Translations under genes and position numbers: made by a program
Notes under the pieces: generated by a model
What the model saw: the letters and a program-made list of their open reading frames with translations, nothing else
The model's database searches: none
Told to the model about the DNA's origin: nothing
NCBI GenBank assembly: GCA_963704755.1
Contig: OY969938.1
Location: forward strand, 2,130,001-2,162,000
Source: an uncultured Chloroflexia bacterium
Lineage (GTDB): Bacteria; Chloroflexota; Anaerolineae; Anaerolineales; Anaerolineaceae
Length of the DNA stretch: 32,000 nt
Direction of reading: 5' to 3'
Shown: piece by piece, positions 2,363 to 14,698 of the stretch
Layout of the letters: each line of letters begins with the position of its first letter
Numbering within the stretch: position 1 is the first letter of the stretch

Positions 2363-4598
2363 GTGTCAACCCACCAGCAAGTTTACAATCCGGTGCGCCG
2401 CCGCACCATGGAAGTCCCCCGGGATAGTTTCCTGGGCTGGCTGACCACGGTGGATCACAAACGTATCGGTATCCTTTATATTGTTTCCGCGTCCGTCTAT
2501 TTCCTCATCGCGGGAATCTTCGCTTTGCTGATGCGCATCCAGTTGGCCCAGCCTAACGCACAGTTCCTCAGCAGCAACGCTTACGATGAGTTGTTCACCA
2601 TGCACGGCACCACCATGATTTTCCTGGTGGTTATGCCGCTCTCGATTGGGGTCGGAAACTTCATCATCCCCTTGATGATCGGTGCCCGCGACATGGCCTT
2701 CCCCAAGCTGAACGCGCTCAGCTTTTGGGTTTTCCTGTTCGGCGGCCTGTTTATGTACAGCAGCTTTGCCCTGGGCGGGGCACCCGATAACGGCTGGTTC
2801 AGCTACGCCCCCCTGACCGAGATGAGCTTTTCGCCCGGCCACGGAATGGACTTTTGGGCGCTGGGTATTCTGCTGCTGACCGTCTCCACTACCCTGGGAT
2901 CGCTCAACTTCATCGTTACAGTGCTGCAAATGCGCGCACCGGGCATGTCCCTGGGGCGCCTGCCGGTCTTCGCCTGGATGATGACCGTCACTTCCTTCCT
3001 GGCCATCTTTGCCCTGCCGGCCCTGACCTCGGCTTCGGTGCTGCTGTTATTGGACCGCAATGTGGGGACTCATTTTTATAACGTGGCCGACCGGAGGCAA
3101 CGCCATTCTGTGGCAAAACCTGTTCTGGTTCTTCGGCCACCCGGAGGTTTATATCCTCATCCTGCCGGCCTTTGGCATTTTCTCCGAGATTATCCCGGTC
3201 TTCTCGCGCCAGCCTTTATTCGGCTACAAAGCGGTCGTCTTTTCCGGGGTGGCCATCGGCTTCCTCGGTTTTACCGTTTGGGCGCACCATATGTTTGCCG
3301 TCGGCCTGCCCGACGTGGCCCAATTGTTCTTCTCGGCCAACAGCTTTTTGATCGGCGTGCCGACCGGGATCAAGATCTTCGCCTGGATCGCTACCATGTG
3401 GGGCGGCAAGCTGCGCTTCAAGACCCCCATGTTGTTTGCCGTCGGCGGGATTGCCCTGTTTACCATCGGCGGCCTGGACGGGATCCACCTGGCCGTCATC
3501 CCGGTGGATTGGCAGGTCACCGACACCTATTACGTAGTCTCTCACCTGCACTACGTCCTCTTTGGCGGGGCTATCTTCGGCCTGACCGCAGCGGCCTTTT
3601 ACTGGTTTCCCAAAATGTCCGGCCGCCGGCTGGGCGAGACCCTGGGCAAGTGGCAGTTCTGGCTGATGTTTGTCGGCATGAACCTGGTGTTCATGCCCAT
3701 GCACATTCTCGGCTTGTTGGGCATGCCGCGGCGGGTGTATACCTACGCTTCCGGCAGCGGCTGGGATATCTGGAACCTGATTTCCACGATCGGTTCGTTT
3801 GTACTCGCGGCCGGTTTTATCCTCTTCCTGGTCAACCTGGTGCGCACGTTCTCCCGGCCGGCCGAACATGAAGCCGATCCCTGGGATGGTTTTACCCTGG
3901 AATGGAGCACCAGCTCCCCGCCCCCGGTAGAGAATTTCGACCAGCCGCTGCCGGAAGTGCGCAGCGCCCGCCCGTTGTGGGATAAAAAATATCCCGACCT
4001 GGCCGACTGGAAGCAAACGAGAGGGTTGATCATGCAAACAACTCAAACCCAAGTTAATCCGCGCGGCAAAGCCCTGATCCTGCTCGGTCTGGTGCTGGGC
4101 AGCGAGACCTTATTATTCGGCTTGCTGGCCGTCTCCTATTTGTTCATGCGCGCCCAACAGGGCATCTGGCAGCCAAACACGCTTGCCCAATACCGCTACT
4201 GGCTGCCGGTTTGGAACACGCTGGTTCTTTTGGTCAGTGCGTTGACCGCCTGGCGCAGCCTGGTCGCCATCCGGGCCGGCCGCCGCGACAGTTTATTGAA
4301 CGCCTCACAGATCACCCTGCTGCTGGGCCTGTTGTTCGTGGCCGGCCAGGCGCTCGAATTCAGCCAGGCCGGCATGCCTCTGGATGCGCCCGGCTTCGGC
4401 GGGATCCTGTTTGCCTTGATGAGCTTCCACGCCCTGCATGTACTGGCCGGGGTGGTCGTCGAAGGGCTGGTCGTGGTCCGCGCCCGCCTGGGTGATTTTA
4501 GTCCCGCCAACCACGTGGCTGTAGAGGCCGGGGTCTATTTCTGGTTTTTTGTGACCCTGGTATGGGTCGTATTATTCGTGCTGCTTTACCTGGTATAA
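2363..4598 (+). CDS. ctaD: Cytochrome c oxidase subunit I fused to a subunit III-like C-terminal domain (caa3-type I/III fusion); reading frame broken by a 1-nt shift near 3073-3092
   Basis: Frame A from GTG 2363 reads HKRIGILY...MHGTTMIF...LLLDRNVGTHF. Frame B reads ...GGNAILWQNLFWFFGHPEVYILILPAFG...WAHHMF...VVSHLHYVLFGG, which is canonical haem-copper oxidase subunit I. After about 4030 there are five more TM helices (FHALHVLAGV...YFWFFVTLVWVVLF) resembling subunit III. The Arg/Pro-rich tail of the 502-aa track ORF is an out-of-frame read. Confidence 0.85.
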
Positions 4599-4847: not shown

Positions 4848-5430
4848 TGCTCATCCCAAATCCGGCTCGAGCAGCTTCCTCCGCCAGCGCGATAACCCCA
4901 AGCTGGCCCTCTGGTTCTTTATCGGCGGCGAAGTCGTTTTCTTCTCTACCCTGATCCTCACTTTTGCCCTGGCCCGCATCGAATACGCCTCACAGTATGC
5001 CGATTTTCGCAGCCACCTGAGCATCCCGCTGATCGCCGGAAACACCTTTGTGCTCATCGCCAGCAGCTTCCTGGTGGTGCGCGGCCTGGAGGCTATCCGT
5101 GAGGGCAACCAGAAGGGCTTGCAAGGCAACCTGCTGGGTGTGCTGATCCTCGGGCTGATATTCCTCGGCGGGCAGGCCTTCGAATGGTCCACCCTTTTTT
5201 CGGCCGGAATTAGCCCTTCCAACCCGTTCGGGACACCCTTTTTCACGGTTACCGGCATCCACGGCACCCACGTGTTTGTGGGCGTTCTTTGGGGAGCCTT
5301 TTTACTGATTTACGCCAGGCGCCACAAGTTTTCCGTACAAGACCACCGCGGGATCGAGAACTTCGGCCTGTACTGGCACTTTGTGGACATCGTCTGGATT
5401 GTTCTATTCACCCTGATCTATCTGATTTAA
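4840..5430 (+). CDS. ctaE: Cytochrome c oxidase subunit III
   Basis: 196 aa with five TM helices. It carries subunit III signatures: GGQAFEW, FFTVTGIHGTHVFVG, YWHFVDIVWIVLF. Confidence 0.85.
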   Translation: MSDAHPKSGSSSFLRQRDNPKLALWFFIGGEVVFFSTLILTFALARIEYASQYADFRSHLSIPLIAGNTFVLIASSFLVVRGLEAIREGNQKGLQGNLLGVLILGLIFLGGQAFEWSTLFSAGISPSNPFGTPFFTVTGIHGTHVFVGVLWGAFLLIYARRHKFSVQDHRGIENFGLYWHFVDIVWIVLFTLIYLI

Positions 5431-5485
5431 GGAGCGGCCATGGAACTCGAACCAAGCCAACCCCACCAGCCCTACGGCTGATAAT

Positions 5486-5770
5486 TTGACCGAACGGCAT
5501 GCCAAACCGCCCTACCTGGCGGTGTTCATTGCCCTGGCCGTACTCACCGCCCTGGAAGTAGCCACCAGCTACCTGCCGGCCGGTACACGCATCCCCATTC
5601 TGGCCGTGTTAGCCACCGCCAAGGTTCTGCTGGTGCTGTTGTTCTTCATGCACCTCAAGTTCGACACCCGCATCTTCACCTTCCCCTTCGTGATCGGCCT
5701 GATCATCGCTCTGCCGATCATCCTGGCGGTCACCCTGGCCATGCCGGCCCTGGTGCCGCTGTTCAAATAA
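5486..5770 (+). CDS. ctaF: Cytochrome c oxidase subunit IV (prokaryotic COX4/CtaF-like); start uncertain
   Basis: 94 aa with three TM helices and the typical YLAVFIALAVLTALEV...FMHLKF pattern. It is the last gene of the cox cluster. The track start is TTG with no SD. See the finding on ATG 5440 for an alternative start. Confidence 0.7.
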   Translation: MTERHAKPPYLAVFIALAVLTALEVATSYLPAGTRIPILAVLATAKVLLVLLFFMHLKFDTRIFTFPFVIGLIIALPIILAVTLAMPALVPLFK

Positions 5771-5819
5771 ACCATTTCCAAACACAATATCCTTAGGGGG
5801 ATCGTGTTTATTTCTAATT

Positions 5820-5853
5820 CCTCCCCTAAAATCCCATGAGATTTTAGGGGAGG
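5820..5853 (+). terminator. Intrinsic terminator-like hairpin after the cox operon
   Basis: A perfect 14-bp stem, cctcccctaaaatc (5820-5833) with gattttaggggagg (5840-5853), and a 6-nt loop. It is followed by TTTGGTTTG. Confidence 0.55.
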
Positions 5854-6089
5854 TTTGGTTTGAGGGATCAGTCAAAGAGGGGACAAGGCCACAAGGGGAA
5901 TCTCCCCTTCCCCCGCTCTGGGGGAAGGGCCCAGGGGATGAGGGCAAAATCCCCCGTTTGGTCGATCCCCTTCATTTGGCAGCCCGAAATTCTCATGATA
6001 TACTAATCTTTAATTATGGGTCTATTTACCATATTTATTACACATTACGCCTGCGTTAGCCGTTATGATCCTCATTAAAGGACACTCCC

Positions 6090-6779
6090 GTGAACATACT
6101 CGTCGTCGATGATGACCCCTTGATCTGCAAGGGGTTGAAATTTAATTTAGAACGCACCGGGTATGAAGTAACTACCGCTACCACCAGTTCGGCTGCCCTC
6201 GATCACATTCACCGGATGAAATTTCAGGCTGTCATCCTGGACGTCGGGCTGCCGGGAGAAGACGGCCTCAGCCTGTGCCGCCACCTGAAGGAACTGTACA
6301 ACCTGCCGGTCATTTTCCTGACGGCCCGCCGACGCGAACTGGACGAGATTGTCGGCCTGGAAATCGGCGCCGATGACTACATCACCAAGCCTTTCAACGT
6401 GGATGTGCTGCTGGCCCACCTCAAAGCGGTCTTGCGCCGGGCCGGGACAGCCTCGTCCCCCCAGACGACGCCTGCCAGTGTCCCGCTTACCTGCGGACCC
6501 TTTTCCGTCGATCCCCAATCGCACCGCGCCAGCCAGGATGGACATCCTCTCAGCCTGGCCCCGCGCGAATTCGACCTGCTCTTCTTCCTGATCGCCCACC
6601 CGGACCAGGTGTTTACCACCGAAGAGATCATCGACAGCGTTTGGGGAGCCGAGTTCATCGGCGAGCCACAGGCACTCTATGTGCAGGTCCGCAGCTTACG
6701 CGAGAAAATCGAGGCTAACCCCTCCAAGCCCAAGCACATCTTGACCATTCGTGGAATCGGTTACAAATTCATGCCATGA
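6090..6779 (+). CDS. OmpR/PhoB-family response regulator (REC + winged-helix DNA-binding domain)
   Basis: REC motifs: ILVVDDD, AVILDVGLPGEDG, DDYITKPF. The C-terminal trans_reg_C pattern is LAPREFDLLFFL...IRGIGYKF. GTG start with AAAGGA upstream. Confidence 0.9.
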   Translation: MNILVVDDDPLICKGLKFNLERTGYEVTTATTSSAALDHIHRMKFQAVILDVGLPGEDGLSLCRHLKELYNLPVIFLTARRRELDEIVGLEIGADDYITKPFNVDVLLAHLKAVLRRAGTASSPQTTPASVPLTCGPFSVDPQSHRASQDGHPLSLAPREFDLLFFLIAHPDQVFTTEEIIDSVWGAEFIGEPQALYVQVRSLREKIEANPSKPKHILTIRGIGYKFMP

Positions 6780-10034: not shown

Positions 10035-11918
10035 ATGCCCTATATCTGGAGGAAAACCCTGAAAAGGCCGGTTGTTCTGCTCATTTTCTGGCTATTTTTT
10101 TGTGGGCTGGTGGCAGCCGCAATTCCGGCCGCCTCGCCTGCCCTGGCCCAGGATGAGCAGCCTCCGGAAGGTTACAAACGCCTGACGACTTTGAACGTTT
10201 CCTACACTGCCTACCAGTGGTGGTTGGTCCGCTGGAAGGGCAATGACATAACCTGCCAGTTTACCGTCGACCATGACGGGCTGCCGATCGCGGATGAGAT
10301 CAAAACCTGGTGCGGACCCAGCCTGTACAACGAATGGAAAGCCACCCAACCTTGCAGCCTGGACAGCCAGAATTGTCCGGGCCTGTATCTGTACCTCTAT
10401 TCCAGCAGCCCGGCTGAAAAAGAAGTCCAGGTGGAGCTGCCGCTGCCCAGCGTATGGGTATCCATCAGCGGCTGTTCGCCCCAGCCGCCTGATAACCGCT
10501 GCGATAGCCCCCCCGAGCTGCAATTGACCGGCGAGGAGCCCTTGCCGAACGAAGTTATTATCAGCATCCAGGGCACTGCCAACGGCGAACCCTTCGTCTG
10601 TAACGGGGATAGCTGCGCGATTCCCCTGGCTCCTACCGGCCAGCAGGGCATCACGGTCGAATTCTGGGCCGAATCCAGCTTTGGCGACGAAAGCCCGCAC
10701 TTTACCGCCCAGGTACGCGTAACCGCCCAGGGTGACTTCATGTCTCCCGAAGGTTCGTCTTCCGACTCACCGGTCTATTATGTGGATGTACTCAGCGACC
10801 AGTGGCGCGGTGCGCCGCTGGCAAGCTGTTCCGATACCTGGCAGGCCTTTCCAGACGTGGGCGGCCCGCCAGCCTGGCTCACCACGCCGCCTACGGCGGA
10901 CAATTTATATTCGGCCAACACCCTTTATTACCTGGCCGGTATGCTGATCAGCAATGGCGATGTGGATGCCAGCGCCTGTGCCGATGGCGGCCTGGACAGC
11001 AGCCGGGTTGCCAGCACCTGCGGCCTGCAAGTCGCTCAAGACCAGGTAACCGCATGGCAAAACAAGTTCGACAACGATATCTTTCAGGCTGCACAGGATA
11101 CCGGTGTGCCGGCCCAACTTCTCAAGAATATTTTCAACCGCGAGAGCCAGTTCTGGCCGGGTATCTACCAGAGCTACAAGGAAGCCGGCCTGGGTCAATT
11201 GACTGAAAATGGCGCCGATACCATCCTGCTCTGGAACCCGGATTTCTTCAACCAGTTCTGCCCGCTGCTGCTCCAGCAGGACCGCTGCGACCTGGGCTTT
11301 GGCAACCTCAGCGTTAATGAACAGGCCTTATTGCGCGGCGGGCTGGTCAGCAAGGTCAACGCCACCTGCGAAGATTGCGCCACCGGCATTGACCTGACCC
11401 AGGCCAGTTTCAGCGTTAAAGTCTTCGCCGAAGGGCTGAAAGGCAACTGCGAACAGGTTGGCCGGATCATCACCAATGTGACCAGCGAATATCCCGGCCA
11501 GCTTTCCACCTATTCCGACCTGTGGAAATTTACCCTGGTTAACTACAATGCCGGGCCAGGCTGTCTGGCCAATGCCATCCAGACCACTTACAGCCAGGGC
11601 AAGCCCCTGGATTGGGACAGCGTGACAGGCAACCTGGAAGAAGCCTGCCAGGGAGCCATCCAGTACGTGGACGATATCAGCTCGATGGTGCCTGAGGTAC
11701 AGCCCACGCCTACCTCGTGGGTCTTCCCGGGGCAAACCCCGGCCTCGCCGGGGGTCAGCCCTACCTCGCCGCCTGGCGTCACGTCTACACCCGGCCCCAC
11801 GGCCACCCCATCCCCCACCAGCCAGGGCTATCCCGCCGTGACCCAGCCGGCCACGCCCACACCGGAAGGCTACCCGGCCGTTCCCACCCTCAGCGAGCCG
11901 ACCTATTCCTACCCATAG
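10035..11918 (+). CDS. Secreted protein with a family-1 lytic transglycosylase (SLT) domain, a Cys-rich N-terminal region and a Pro/Thr-rich C-terminal tail
   Basis: Signal peptide ending ASPALAQ. SLT signature triad: NRESQFWPG (catalytic E-S), GLGQLTE, LVNYNAGPG. The tail is PTSPPGVTSTPGPTATPSPT. Confidence 0.75.
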   Translation: MPYIWRKTLKRPVVLLIFWLFFCGLVAAAIPAASPALAQDEQPPEGYKRLTTLNVSYTAYQWWLVRWKGNDITCQFTVDHDGLPIADEIKTWCGPSLYNEWKATQPCSLDSQNCPGLYLYLYSSSPAEKEVQVELPLPSVWVSISGCSPQPPDNRCDSPPELQLTGEEPLPNEVIISIQGTANGEPFVCNGDSCAIPLAPTGQQGITVEFWAESSFGDESPHFTAQVRVTAQGDFMSPEGSSSDSPVYYVDVLSDQWRGAPLASCSDTWQAFPDVGGPPAWLTTPPTADNLYSANTLYYLAGMLISNGDVDASACADGGLDSSRVASTCGLQVAQDQVTAWQNKFDNDIFQAAQDTGVPAQLLKNIFNRESQFWPGIYQSYKEAGLGQLTENGADTILLWNPDFFNQFCPLLLQQDRCDLGFGNLSVNEQALLRGGLVSKVNATCEDCATGIDLTQASFSVKVFAEGLKGNCEQVGRIITNVTSEYPGQLSTYSDLWKFTLVNYNAGPGCLANAIQTTYSQGKPLDWDSVTGNLEEACQGAIQYVDDISSMVPEVQPTPTSWVFPGQTPASPGVSPTSPPGVTSTPGPTATPSPTSQGYPAVTQPATPTPEGYPAVPTLSEPTYSYP

Positions 11919-13512
11919 CGCCAATCCATGCCGCAGCCTGGCTTTCCAAGCCGGGAAAACGCTTGGCTTGAGTATCTCCGCGGTTGGCCCAACCGGCAGC
12001 TAAAGCTGCACCTACGAATACACAAAGACCCATCTGCGTGGGTCCCCCTTTTGGCGAGGCCTGATTCCGAAGGCCGAATTCTCGCATTGTCGGCATTTTC
12101 TCAGGTTGGAATCCGGCGCTTTGACGTCCGACCTGTTGGGTGCGTTTCCAACGCACCAAAACGCTTGGCAATCATGCCTTCCGGATTGGATGGAAATGCT
12201 GCCAAACGGGTTTTGTTACCCAGAGTTTGCCCTTAATCAAACAAAATGGTGCGTTATCAACGCACCCTACATAAACGCCCATCCGGCCTCGTAGCCCGGC
12301 TTTCCAAGCCGGGAAAACGCTTGGCTTGAGTATCTCCGTGGTTGGCCCAACCGGCAGCTAAAGCTTCACCTACGAATACACAAAGACCCATCTGCGTGGG
12401 TCTCACTCTTGGCGAGGCTTGATTCCGAAGGCCGAATTCTCGCATAGCCGGCATTTTCTAAGGTTGGAATCCGGCGCTTCGACGTCCGACCTGTAGGGTG
12501 CGTTTCCAACGCACCAAAACGCTTGGCAATCATGCCTTCCGGGTTGGATGGAAATGCTGCCAAACGGGTTTTGCTACCCGGAGTTTGCCCTTAATCAAAC
12601 AAAATGGTGCGTTATCAACGCACCCTACATAAACGCCCATCCGGCCTCGTAGCCCGGCTTTCCAAGCCGGGAAAACGCCTGGCATGAGCATCTCCGCGGT
12701 TGGCCCAACCGGCAGCTAAAGCTGCACCTACGAATACACAAAGACCCACCTGCGTGGGTCTCACTTTTGGCGAGGCCTGATTCCGAAGGCCGAATTCTCG
12801 CATAGCCGGAATTTTCTTAGGTTGGAAACCGGCGCTTCGACGTCCGACCTGTAGGGTGCGTTTCCAACGCACCAAAACGCTTGGCAATCATGCCTTCTGG
12901 ATTGGATGGAAATGCTGCCAAACGGGTTTTGCTACCCGGAGTTTGCCCTTAATCAAACAAAATGGTGCGTTATCAACGCACCCTACATAAACGCTCATCC
13001 GGCCTCGTAGCCTGGCTTTCACAGCCGGGAAAACGTTTGGCTTGGGCATCTCCGTGGCCAGCCCAACCGGCAGCTAAAGCTGCACCTACGAATACACAAA
13101 GACCCACCTGCGTGGGTATCCCTTTTGGCGAGGCTTGATTCCGAAGGCCGAATTCTCGCATAGCCGGCATTTTCTAAGGTTGGAATCCGGCGCTTCGACG
13201 TCCGACCTGTAGGGTGCGTTTCCAACGCACCAAAACGCTTGGCAATCATGCCTTCTGGATTGGATGGAAATGCTGCCAAACGGGTTTTGCTACCCGGAGT
13301 TTGCCCTTAATCAAACAAAATGGTGCGTTATCAACGCACCCTACATAAACGCTCATCCGGCCTCGTAGCCTGGCTTTCACAGCCGGGAAAACGCTTGGCT
13401 TGAGTATCTCCGCGGTTGGCCCAACCGGCAGCTAAAGCTGCACCTACGAATACACAAAGACCCACCTGCGTGGGTCTCACTCTTAAGCCAGGCCTGATTC
13501 CGCAGCCAGAAC
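11911..13512. repeat. Tandem array of about 4.5 copies of a 358-bp hairpin-rich non-coding unit
   Basis: The phase marker gctttc(c/a) occurs at 11941, 12299, 12657, 13015 and 13373, exactly 358 bp apart each time. Copies 2 and 3 differ by 15 substitutions and no indels (hand alignment). The left edge overlaps the stop codon of the SLT-domain gene. The fifth copy decays at about 13510. Confidence 0.92.
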
Positions 13513-13527
13513 CTGGCCTGCAAACAA

Positions 13528-13585
13528 CTCCCTCTCCCGGCGGCCAAGGCCGGTTTGGATCAGCGTATCACGCTGGGAGAGGGAG
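13528..13585. other. Long-range hairpin: 11-bp perfect stem enclosing 36 nt with internal mini-hairpins
   Basis: ctccctctccc (13528-13538) pairs with gggagagggag (13575-13585). Inside are ggcc-aa-ggcc and agcgt-atc-acgct. It lies between the repeat array and the 3' end of the minus-strand E2-like gene. Confidence 0.5.
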
Positions 13586-13602
13586 AAGAAATTCAGATGA
13601 GA

Positions 13603-13617
13603 GGGGCCAGAGGCCCC
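13603..13617 (-). terminator. Short GC hairpin just downstream of the E2-like gene stop (weak terminator candidate)
   Basis: ggggcc-aga-ggcccc. On the minus strand it is followed by TCTCATCTGAATTTCTTC. Confidence 0.35.
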
Positions 13618-13629
13618 GTTAAAGCCCGG

Positions 13630-14583
13630 TTACCAGGTTCGAATCACACCCGGTTCTGCGAAAATTTCATCCAGGCGCTTCAAGAATGGAATAAGAACGT
13701 TGAAATCGACGGCCCGGTGATCAAAAGCCAGACACATCGGAATGACTTTACGGATGCCGATCTCTTTTTGACCCCGGTCGTTTACGAATACCCCCGGTTT
13801 TTCCTGGATCGCGCCTAATCCAATCGCGAATATTTGCGGCGGGATAATTTCAAGTATGCCGAAGGCCCCTTTTTGTTCTTTGTACAGCGACCCGATGTTC
13901 GATACGGTCACCGTGCCCTGGGTGAGGTTCTCGGCGGGTAATCGATCTTCCGAGGGTATTCGATAATAGTCCCGTCTGTCCTGGCCCGTCAGCTTTTTTA
14001 TTCGATGAATACCTAATTCGACGGCAAAAACTCTGCGAAGTACATCCAGATGGAATTTCTTGAGTTCATCGAGCGTATCTTTCCGGGCGGCTTGATACAG
14101 CATTTCATCGATGTTGGTATTTTTTATTTTTCCGCCTAACGCTGCGATTGCATTGGAAAGTTCATCGACGGTCATCGCTTCTGTATTGGAAAGCACGGGG
14201 GTAATCAATCTTCCATCCGGTAACAGCCAGGGGATAGAAATGTTGATCTGGGTGCTTATGGTTAGGGTCCCTTCCCCTTTGACGTGGTTATATTGGATCC
14301 GCGAGTTCAATTTCGGGGACGTTTTGAGTCCTTCGATGATCACCCGCAGCATGATGGTGTTGATAGAGATTCTATGGTCTTGCTCGGTTTTAGTCTCGGC
14401 CAGGCCATTGAATTCTTCGATAAATTTGGTCACGTCCGGTTCGTACAAATAAGTCACATGAGGAATGTTCTTCCATGACTCTGAGGTCATATGGGAAACG
14501 ACTCTGCGTTGCAAATCAAAAAAACCGACCGGTTCCGATCGCGTATTTGGCTCGGCCATAATTTTATCCTCGGGTAGTGACAT
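13630..14583 (-). CDS. 2-oxoacid dehydrogenase E2-type acyltransferase, catalytic domain only (no lipoyl or E3-binding domain)
   Basis: The C-terminal active-site motif is LAFDHRAVDF (DHRxxDG-like), with E2/CAT-fold length. ATG at 14583 has GGAAAA upstream. Only about 115 bp lie upstream, so a lipoyl domain does not fit. The composition is visibly more A/T-rich than the neighbours. Confidence 0.75.
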   Translation of the reverse strand: MSLPEDKIMAEPNTRSEPVGFFDLQRRVVSHMTSESWKNIPHVTYLYEPDVTKFIEEFNGLAETKTEQDHRISINTIMLRVIIEGLKTSPKLNSRIQYNHVKGEGTLTISTQINISIPWLLPDGRLITPVLSNTEAMTVDELSNAIAALGGKIKNTNIDEMLYQAARKDTLDELKKFHLDVLRRVFAVELGIHRIKKLTGQDRRDYYRIPSEDRLPAENLTQGTVTVSNIGSLYKEQKGAFGILEIIPPQIFAIGLGAIQEKPGVFVNDRGQKEIGIRKVIPMCLAFDHRAVDFNVLIPFLKRLDEIFAEPGVIRTW

Positions 14584-14698
14584 ATTTTCCTTAGCAGCCC
14601 CTGCAAGAACGCAAAAACCCACCTTCCGGGTCTCTTTTTTCGGCCCGGTACAGGCCAGGTTTCGTGTTTTCGTTGCCTTGCCCCTGGTCGGCCCTTTT

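Follow-up and report, generated by a model that had tools for sequence, protein, structure and literature searches.

The 32-kb stretch of contig OY969938.1 analysed here (in the following, the window) carries a tandem array of 358-bp units between two converging genes, and two related hairpin modules, A and B, recur throughout this array. In the original prediction, they were described as paralogous modules that share flanks and loop while their stems differ by fully compensated changes, which was taken as the mark of selection on a structure acting as RNA or as single-stranded DNA (ssDNA). The question raised by this locus is what kind of element the modules are, and whether a new structured RNA has to be invoked to account for them. 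Both modules were indeed found, A in five and B in four copies; five stem pairs differ between them, all by Watson-Crick compensated changes, and the hairpin is real, with its pairing preserved from A to B. The pattern has the look of a new structured RNA, but a repeat class that is already known explains it, and a false lead is thereby removed. The modules are very probably repetitive extragenic palindromes (REPs) tagged with the tetranucleotide GTAG, which form a cluster resembling bacterial interspersed mosaic elements (BIMEs) that was tandemly amplified in a genome of the Anaerolineaceae type. Rather than a new RNA, the array is a selfish or domesticated repeat of known kind. REP-associated tyrosine transposases (RAYT, TnpA-REP) bind REPs in the form of folded ssDNA and cut them (PMC8266576, PMC3479197), and GTAG REPs have been described in several phyla including Chloroflexi (Di Nocera et al., 2013; PMC3733652).

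The core of hairpins B and C and its link to RAYT genes

Apart from A and B, each unit contains two more related copies in inverted orientation, hairpin C and a decayed copy of A (A'). C is a perfect hairpin (GGTGCGT-TATCA-ACGCACC) followed by CTAC, which corresponds to the stem of B together with GTAG on the opposite strand. The core common to B and C comprises 23 nt, GTAG-GGTGCGTT-NNN-AACGCACC. Matches to the 23-mer GTAGGGTGCGTTNNNAACGCACC were obtained in at least 120 metagenome contigs, and the counts of instances, loops, GC contents, RAYT genes and neighbouring pairs given below refer to the contigs listed among these matches. In 120 listed contigs, whose GC content ranges from 29 to 68%, 143 instances of the core were found, with more than 30 different loops and with unrelated flanks. 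Open stretches of 150 or more codons cover 81% of all bases but contain the centres of only 28% of the instances; the core is mostly extragenic. The conservation of GGTGCGTT/AACGCACC in at least 120 contigs, with a varying loop, contradicts for B the proposal that the primary sequence is free and that structure alone is selected. The broad range of GC contents is to be read either as one REP/RAYT pair with a very broad phylogenetic range or as horizontal movement.

In nine of the 120 listed loci a RAYT homologue directly adjoins the core. Two of the adjoining proteins were assigned to the NCBIfam family NF047646 (REP-associated tyrosine transposase; E 6e-53 and 2e-55), one of the two also matches Pfam Y1_Tnp, and in both of their loci (L009 and L074) inverted copies of the core are located on both sides of the RAYT gene. 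Named members of this RAYT clade belong to Chloroflexi, Anaerolineales and Anaerolineaceae, which is the lineage of the window as judged from its SLT-domain protein. At RAYT loci of the Anaerolineaceae type, the gene is adjoined by either GTAG-GGTGCGGTC...GACCGCACC or GTAG-GGTGCGT...ACGCACC. Given the core matches and this adjacency to RAYT genes, B and C are canonical REPs of a RAYT-linked family. They also show the dimer geometry that is typical of the family: 15 of 24 neighbouring pairs are oriented head-to-head, with GTAG outward, the gaps measuring 11-38 or 85-115 nt, and the gap of 90 nt between B and C in the window falls into the second class. That the hairpin might act as ssDNA, as had been considered from the start, fits its identity as a GTAG-tagged REP, and it probably matters in this form. 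For the annotation of REP/RAYT systems beyond the Proteobacteria, the core might further provide a starting point.

Five other loci also contain tandem duplications of a REP together with flanking DNA, the periods measuring 41-447 bp and the copy number being about two; such reiteration is a recurrent outcome in the B/C family. The longest of these units (447 bp, 2.1 copies, 99% identical) lies at 12679-13611 of locus L093, and at 2868-3173 of locus L007 a 154-bp unit including the REP occurs in two copies and overlaps the 5' end of a RAYT gene. Cyanobacterial-type GCGATCGC motifs are present in some of the core-bearing contigs (loci L007-L126).

Architecture of the repeat unit and alternative readings

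All copies of A and B lie on the + strand. The module A described in the original prediction is the third copy, at 12640-12683, with GTAG at 12649-12652 and the hairpin at 12653-12671; its location was confirmed, while its 3' flank reads AAAACGCCTGGC and not AAAACGCTTGGC, the latter being the consensus that had been quoted. The consensus flank is found in the second copy (12282-12325), which reads TCCGGCCTC-GTAG-CCCGGCTT-TCC-AAGCCGGG-AAAACGCTTGGC. In the first copy (11924-11967; stem CCTGGCTT/AAGCCGGG) GTAG is replaced by GCAG and the 5' flank is diverged, and the fourth and fifth copies (12998-13041 and 13356-13399) are T.G wobble variants with the loop TTCAC, which is thus seen in two of five A copies. 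Module B is present at 12127-12169, 12485-12527, 12843-12885 (the copy that had been described) and 13201-13243. A canonical REP is located at 12493-12515 in the second copy (23 nt, GTAG-GGTGCGTT-TCC-AACGCACC, with local flanks on both sides), at 12851-12873 in the third and at 13209-13231 in the fourth, while the first copy combines the canonical REP stem with GTTG. The copies of A are thus not identical to one another. GTAG precedes the hairpin in four of five A copies, in three of four B copies and, on the - strand, in all four copies of C. Both hairpins are better read as an 8-bp stem with the 3-nt loop TCC than with a longer loop, and free energies of -9.5 kcal/mol for A and -9.0 kcal/mol for B were calculated for ssDNA.

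The inverted elements complete the unit. C is located on the - strand at 12248-12270 (GTAG-GGTGCGTT-GAT-AACGCACC, the inverted partner of B), 12606-12628, 12964-12986 and 13322-13344. The second and third copies form head-to-head dimers with the corresponding copies of B, at 12493-12628 (90-nt gap) and 12851-12986. Measured as inverted arms, B and C extend over 25 nt each, are 88% complementary and lie 88 nt apart. A' is situated upstream of B on the - strand; its second copy (12440-12484) carries GAAG, has kept TTCCAA and GAAAATGCCGGC and has arms that no longer pair, and the equivalent positions in the array are 12082-12126, 12798-12842 and 13156-13200. The unit therefore has the order [A> <A'][B> <C], that is, four related elements in alternating orientation. 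On both strands the whole unit folds better than shuffled sequences (z about -5), A pairing with A' and B with C, and this strong fold is due to the inverted REP copies. Apart from the module itself the halves of the unit are not similar: the module of A and B is the sole similarity between them (local alignment score 26, shuffles 15.6 +/- 2.0, maximum 23). An ancient duplication of a half-unit was rejected, as the halves have nothing in common except the 44-nt module. With a covariance model built from the nine copies of A and B, the same nine copies and no others were recovered within the 32-kb window.

A structured RNA would be one reading of the compensated stems: A and B would then be paralogous small RNAs or cis-regulatory hairpins, the array would consist of RNA genes, and selection would act on pairing. 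All stem changes between A and B are compensated, as this reading demands, and CCTGGCT, present in three of the five A copies, allows a T.G wobble on the + strand but leaves a mismatch on the opposite one. As these variants pair on the + strand only, they point weakly to the GTAG strand as the one that counts, be it as ssDNA or as RNA. The fold of the whole unit and the terminator-like hairpins on the - strand also speak for RNA. However, B and C are the RAYT-linked REP, the strong fold is accounted for by its inverted copies, no promoter-like sites were found, and the orthologous loci of relatives do not contain the array. A search of Rfam 15 yielded no match at the gathering score; with E values up to 10, matches at chance level only were obtained, the best reaching 23 bits against a threshold of 75. 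Moreover, the covariation stems from the single comparison of A with B, and as these represent two lineages, a formal covariation test is almost powerless despite clean shuffle controls. A dedicated structured RNA is therefore regarded as very improbable. Neither A nor B resembles an intrinsic terminator, in which a U-run directly follows a GC-rich hairpin: both run into AAAA on the + strand and into CTAC on the - strand; terminator-like are C and a GACCCAC hairpin, both on the - strand only. A scan for tRNA and tmRNA genes in addition yielded none.

The inverted arrangement would also fit a pair of miniature inverted-repeat transposable elements (MITEs) that were moved by a DDE transposase and subsequently duplicated in tandem. 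B..C has 25-nt inverted ends, starts with TG and ends with CA, and A..A' would provide a second inverted pair. Against this, no target-site duplication was seen in the sequence flanking B..C, and equivalent dimers elsewhere have unrelated spacers, which speaks against the entire doublet being a conserved mobile unit; furthermore, the MITE-like ends are the RAYT-linked REP itself. This origin appears extremely unlikely. Integron attC sites, CRISPR, iterons and partition sites were also considered and rejected, as they do not fit the length of the unit or the identity of its "cassettes".

Further searches were performed with the unit and with the flanks. No match of the unit to plasmid and phage collections was obtained by blastn, and a flank motif with fixed spacing gave 0 matches in metagenomes; 13 viral matches to a shorter flank motif were taken as chance. 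In species-representative genomes, the motif GTAG-N6-8-TTCCA-N6-8-AAAACGCTTGGC was found twice, in unrelated phyla and without a stem. As about two matches are expected by chance according to a rough estimate, this flank test is uninformative.

Origin of the module A stem

While B is a canonical REP, the stem of A calls for an explanation of its own. A keeps the GTAG, the loop, the closing pairs and the 12-nt flank of B, and five of its six GTAG-proximal pairs are re-coded. The differences form a mosaic: in the six outer pairs 10 of 12 nt differ, compared to 2 of 32 at the other positions (p = 1.6e-6). Four of the five changed pairs are flips from G-C to C-G, for which there is no wobble intermediate. 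Compensated change had been offered as the classic signature of selection on a structure; given the mosaic and the flips, it is no clean evidence of stepwise selection in this case. The wider family shows the reverse of the pattern seen between A and B, with variable loops and conserved GTAG-proximal pairs. Among 176 elements, 151 have T-A at both inner pairs, and of the remaining 25 the majority show compensated changes; the search that collected them had fixed the GTAG-proximal GGTGCG/CGCACC and is thus no test of those pairs. Independently of this search, GGTGCG is also kept in the REPs located beside RAYT genes of the Anaerolineaceae type. In view of the mosaic and of the reverse pattern in the family, gradual compensatory evolution from B is not the simplest account of A. 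The relation of A to B looks more like the replacement of the arms, or like a second REP type, than like gradual covariation. Within the reading as REPs, A would be a REP-derived variant.

Two origins are accordingly to be weighed, a second REP family, and a replacement of one arm in a single step followed by correction of the palindrome. According to the first, A would derive from a family with its own RAYT, and its likeness to B in GTAG and TT-TCC-AA would reflect a shared format and not descent. Like B, A consists of GTAG, a perfect 8-bp stem and a 3-nt loop, and with 11 of 143 instances in the listed contigs TTCCA ranks second among the loops of the family. Some genomes are known to harbour several REP families that each have a REPtron of their own (PMC3733652), and the mosaic fits replacement better than drift. 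On the other hand, a second family leaves the identity of the flanks with those of B (8 of 9 and 12 of 12 positions) unexplained, and the A-type stem was absent from 622 kb of REP-bearing loci. We consider an origin from a second family possible but doubtful. Two matches to the A-type stem in viral contigs were dismissed, being coding sequence or chance by their appearance. An empty site, in which both flanks would stand without a hairpin between them, was not found in the sequences searched.

Alternatively, A may be a REP that changed its identity in place. It would then either have acquired a new specificity in co-evolution with a second or altered RAYT, or be a host-selected hairpin (RNA or ssDNA) in which the function resides in the flanks and not in the stem; the amplified array might then act, for instance, as a decoy or sponge for the protein binding it. 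The retention of GTAG, loop, closing pairs and flank beside re-coded arms is what such a change would leave behind, and it is nonetheless an improbable course of events. Within the reading of the array as a BIME-like REP cluster, the A variant offers a small natural case in which the co-evolution of REP stems and their enzymes can be studied.

Gene setting, proposed amplification and known systems

The array was reported by Tandem Repeats Finder as the one large array of its output, at 11935-13502 (no strand; 358-bp unit, 4.4 copies, 95% matches). Degenerate homology to the unit probably extends to about 11905 and about 13515. On the left side the final codons and the stop of the upstream gene (11905-11935) are similar to the end of the repeat unit (TACCCATAGCGCCAATCC compared to CCTACATAAACGCCCATCC), and the homology of the array may start inside the 3' end of that gene. 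Protein coding within the array was rejected, since 358 bp (3 x 119 + 1) is not a multiple of 3 and short open reading frames only are present. The upstream gene (10035-11918, + strand) encodes a 627-aa protein with an SLT (transglycosylase) domain, and its stop codon lies 12-17 nt upstream of the array. Homologues of this protein with 55-69% identity are found in Bellilinea, Longilinea and Thermanaerothrix, which assigns the window to the Anaerolineaceae. Neither the array nor a conserved neighbourhood is present at the orthologous loci of the SLT gene in the closest relatives (64-69% identity). The converging gene (13630-14622, - strand) encodes a 2-oxoacid dehydrogenase E2 acyltransferase. 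The two genes face each other with their 3' ends, and the array fills the larger part of the space that separates them.

The stretch that separates the array from the E2 stop codon contains two hairpins (13528-13617), one of 58 nt at 13528-13585 (CTCCCTCTCCC...GGGAGAGGGAG) and one at 13603-13617 (GGGGCC-AGA-GGCCCC), the latter of which possibly terminates E2 transcription on the - strand. Elsewhere in the window, the intergenic region 5430-6090 contains three perfect hairpins clustered at 5826-5927 (CTAAAATC...GATTTTAG, AAGGGGA...TCCCCTT and CTTCCCCC...GGGGGAAG) that are unrelated to the REPs. The frame of cytochrome c oxidase subunit I is split at 2363-4598: the open reading frame 2363-3871 covers positions 1-198 of Pfam COX1, and that at 3060-4598 covers positions 196-436 followed by COX3. 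The frame changes near 3085-3092, where no homopolymer is present, and the split may reflect a pseudogene, an error of the assembly, or a genuine gene that is frameshifted or fused.

How such an array could arise and act may be proposed from the REP systems that have been characterised. The working part would be the 23 nt of unpaired GTAG, 8-bp perfect stem and 3-nt loop, and each 358-bp unit holds two head-to-head REP dimers, A with the decayed A' and B with the well-kept C. When the DNA is single-stranded, the hairpin would fold and, together with GTAG, would by analogy be bound by a RAYT/TnpA-REP enzyme, a HUH Y1 nuclease, encoded elsewhere in the genome; an active RAYT would accordingly be expected in the source genome. 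By the same analogy the enzyme would cleave at a nearby CT or CA dinucleotide and might transfer the strand, and it is proposed that this activity spread the family and maintained the pairing. The dimer pair with its intervening DNA has been reiterated 4.4 times between the converging genes, for which slippage or unequal recombination among the repeated REPs would be the simplest cause. Since the hairpins would come to lie in the 3' untranslated regions of both genes, they might act as barriers at RNA 3' ends.

Several observations weigh against the assignment to a BIME-like REP cluster. Within the 32-kb window neither a RAYT gene nor a REP outside the array was found, and among the 120 RAYT homologues listed none is from the source contig. 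Neither the stem of A nor the shared 12-nt flank was convincingly found elsewhere in the sequences searched. The dimer linkers of 90 nt and about 130-145 nt exceed those of classical BIMEs. In addition, A differs from B at the GTAG-proximal GGTGCG/CGCACC that is common to the REPs beside RAYT genes of the Anaerolineaceae type and also to 33 elements with inner pairs other than T-A/T-A, the latter collected with GGTGCG/CGCACC fixed, and A may not be a substrate of the same enzyme as B.

The single-strand format has a general parallel in the insertion sequences of the IS200/IS605 family, in which a Y1 HUH enzyme recognises subterminal ssDNA hairpins that have a guide tetranucleotide on their 5' side. 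The combination of an ssDNA hairpin and a 5' tetranucleotide is shared, whereas the hairpins in the window enclose neither a transposase nor tnpB, and the copies are short and numerous and are not the ends of an insertion sequence.

A closer likeness is found with the GTAG REP families (PMC3733652), in which an unpaired 5' GTAG stands beside a GC-rich stem of 6-13 bp in extragenic DNA. As in the window, these REPs favour sites downstream of genes and between converging genes, they are linked to RAYTs, and Chloroflexi are among their hosts. Their dimers are mostly head-to-head, 20-100 bp apart, and sub-families with alternative complementary stem residues occur, G.T pairs being frequent (PMC3733652), which is matched here by the compensated stem variants and the wobble copies of A. 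As a difference, the text and the accessible supplements of that study make no mention of GGTGCGTT/AACGCACC as a stem. The REP of Stenotrophomonas maltophilia (REPtron Sm, group 3 TnpA-REP) has the same 23-nt format, with GTAG, a perfect 8-bp palindrome and a 3-nt loop, and is cleaved by its RAYT as a folded single strand (PMC8266576), while its host belongs to another phylum and its stem and loop have other sequences. Since a change of the third position to GTTG abolishes cleavage of this REP in vitro (PMC8266576), the first B copy, with GTTG at 12135-12138, may by analogy be inert.

At the level of the dimer, the unit can be compared to REP doublets forming hairpins (REPINs; Bertels and Rainey, 2011; PMC3116915). 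In both, two inverted REPs and a spacer can fold into one long hairpin, and the minimum-free-energy fold of the unit uses the pairing of B with C. A REPIN, in contrast, recurs whole as a replicating unit, whereas the spacer in the window was not found elsewhere, other dimers have unrelated spacers, and matches of the unit to other loci are confined to its REPs. At the level of the array, tandem reiteration of REP dimers with flanking DNA has been described in the literature, and the BIMEs of E. coli, especially BIME-2, provide the nearest counterpart (PMC2817692, PMC3333891). With 358 bp the unit is far longer than theirs, its linkers measuring from 90 to about 145 nt, and its perfect stems are without the bulge of the E. 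coli REPs. In both systems REPs in alternating orientation are repeated in tandem in intergenic DNA, and in both two REP types alternate.

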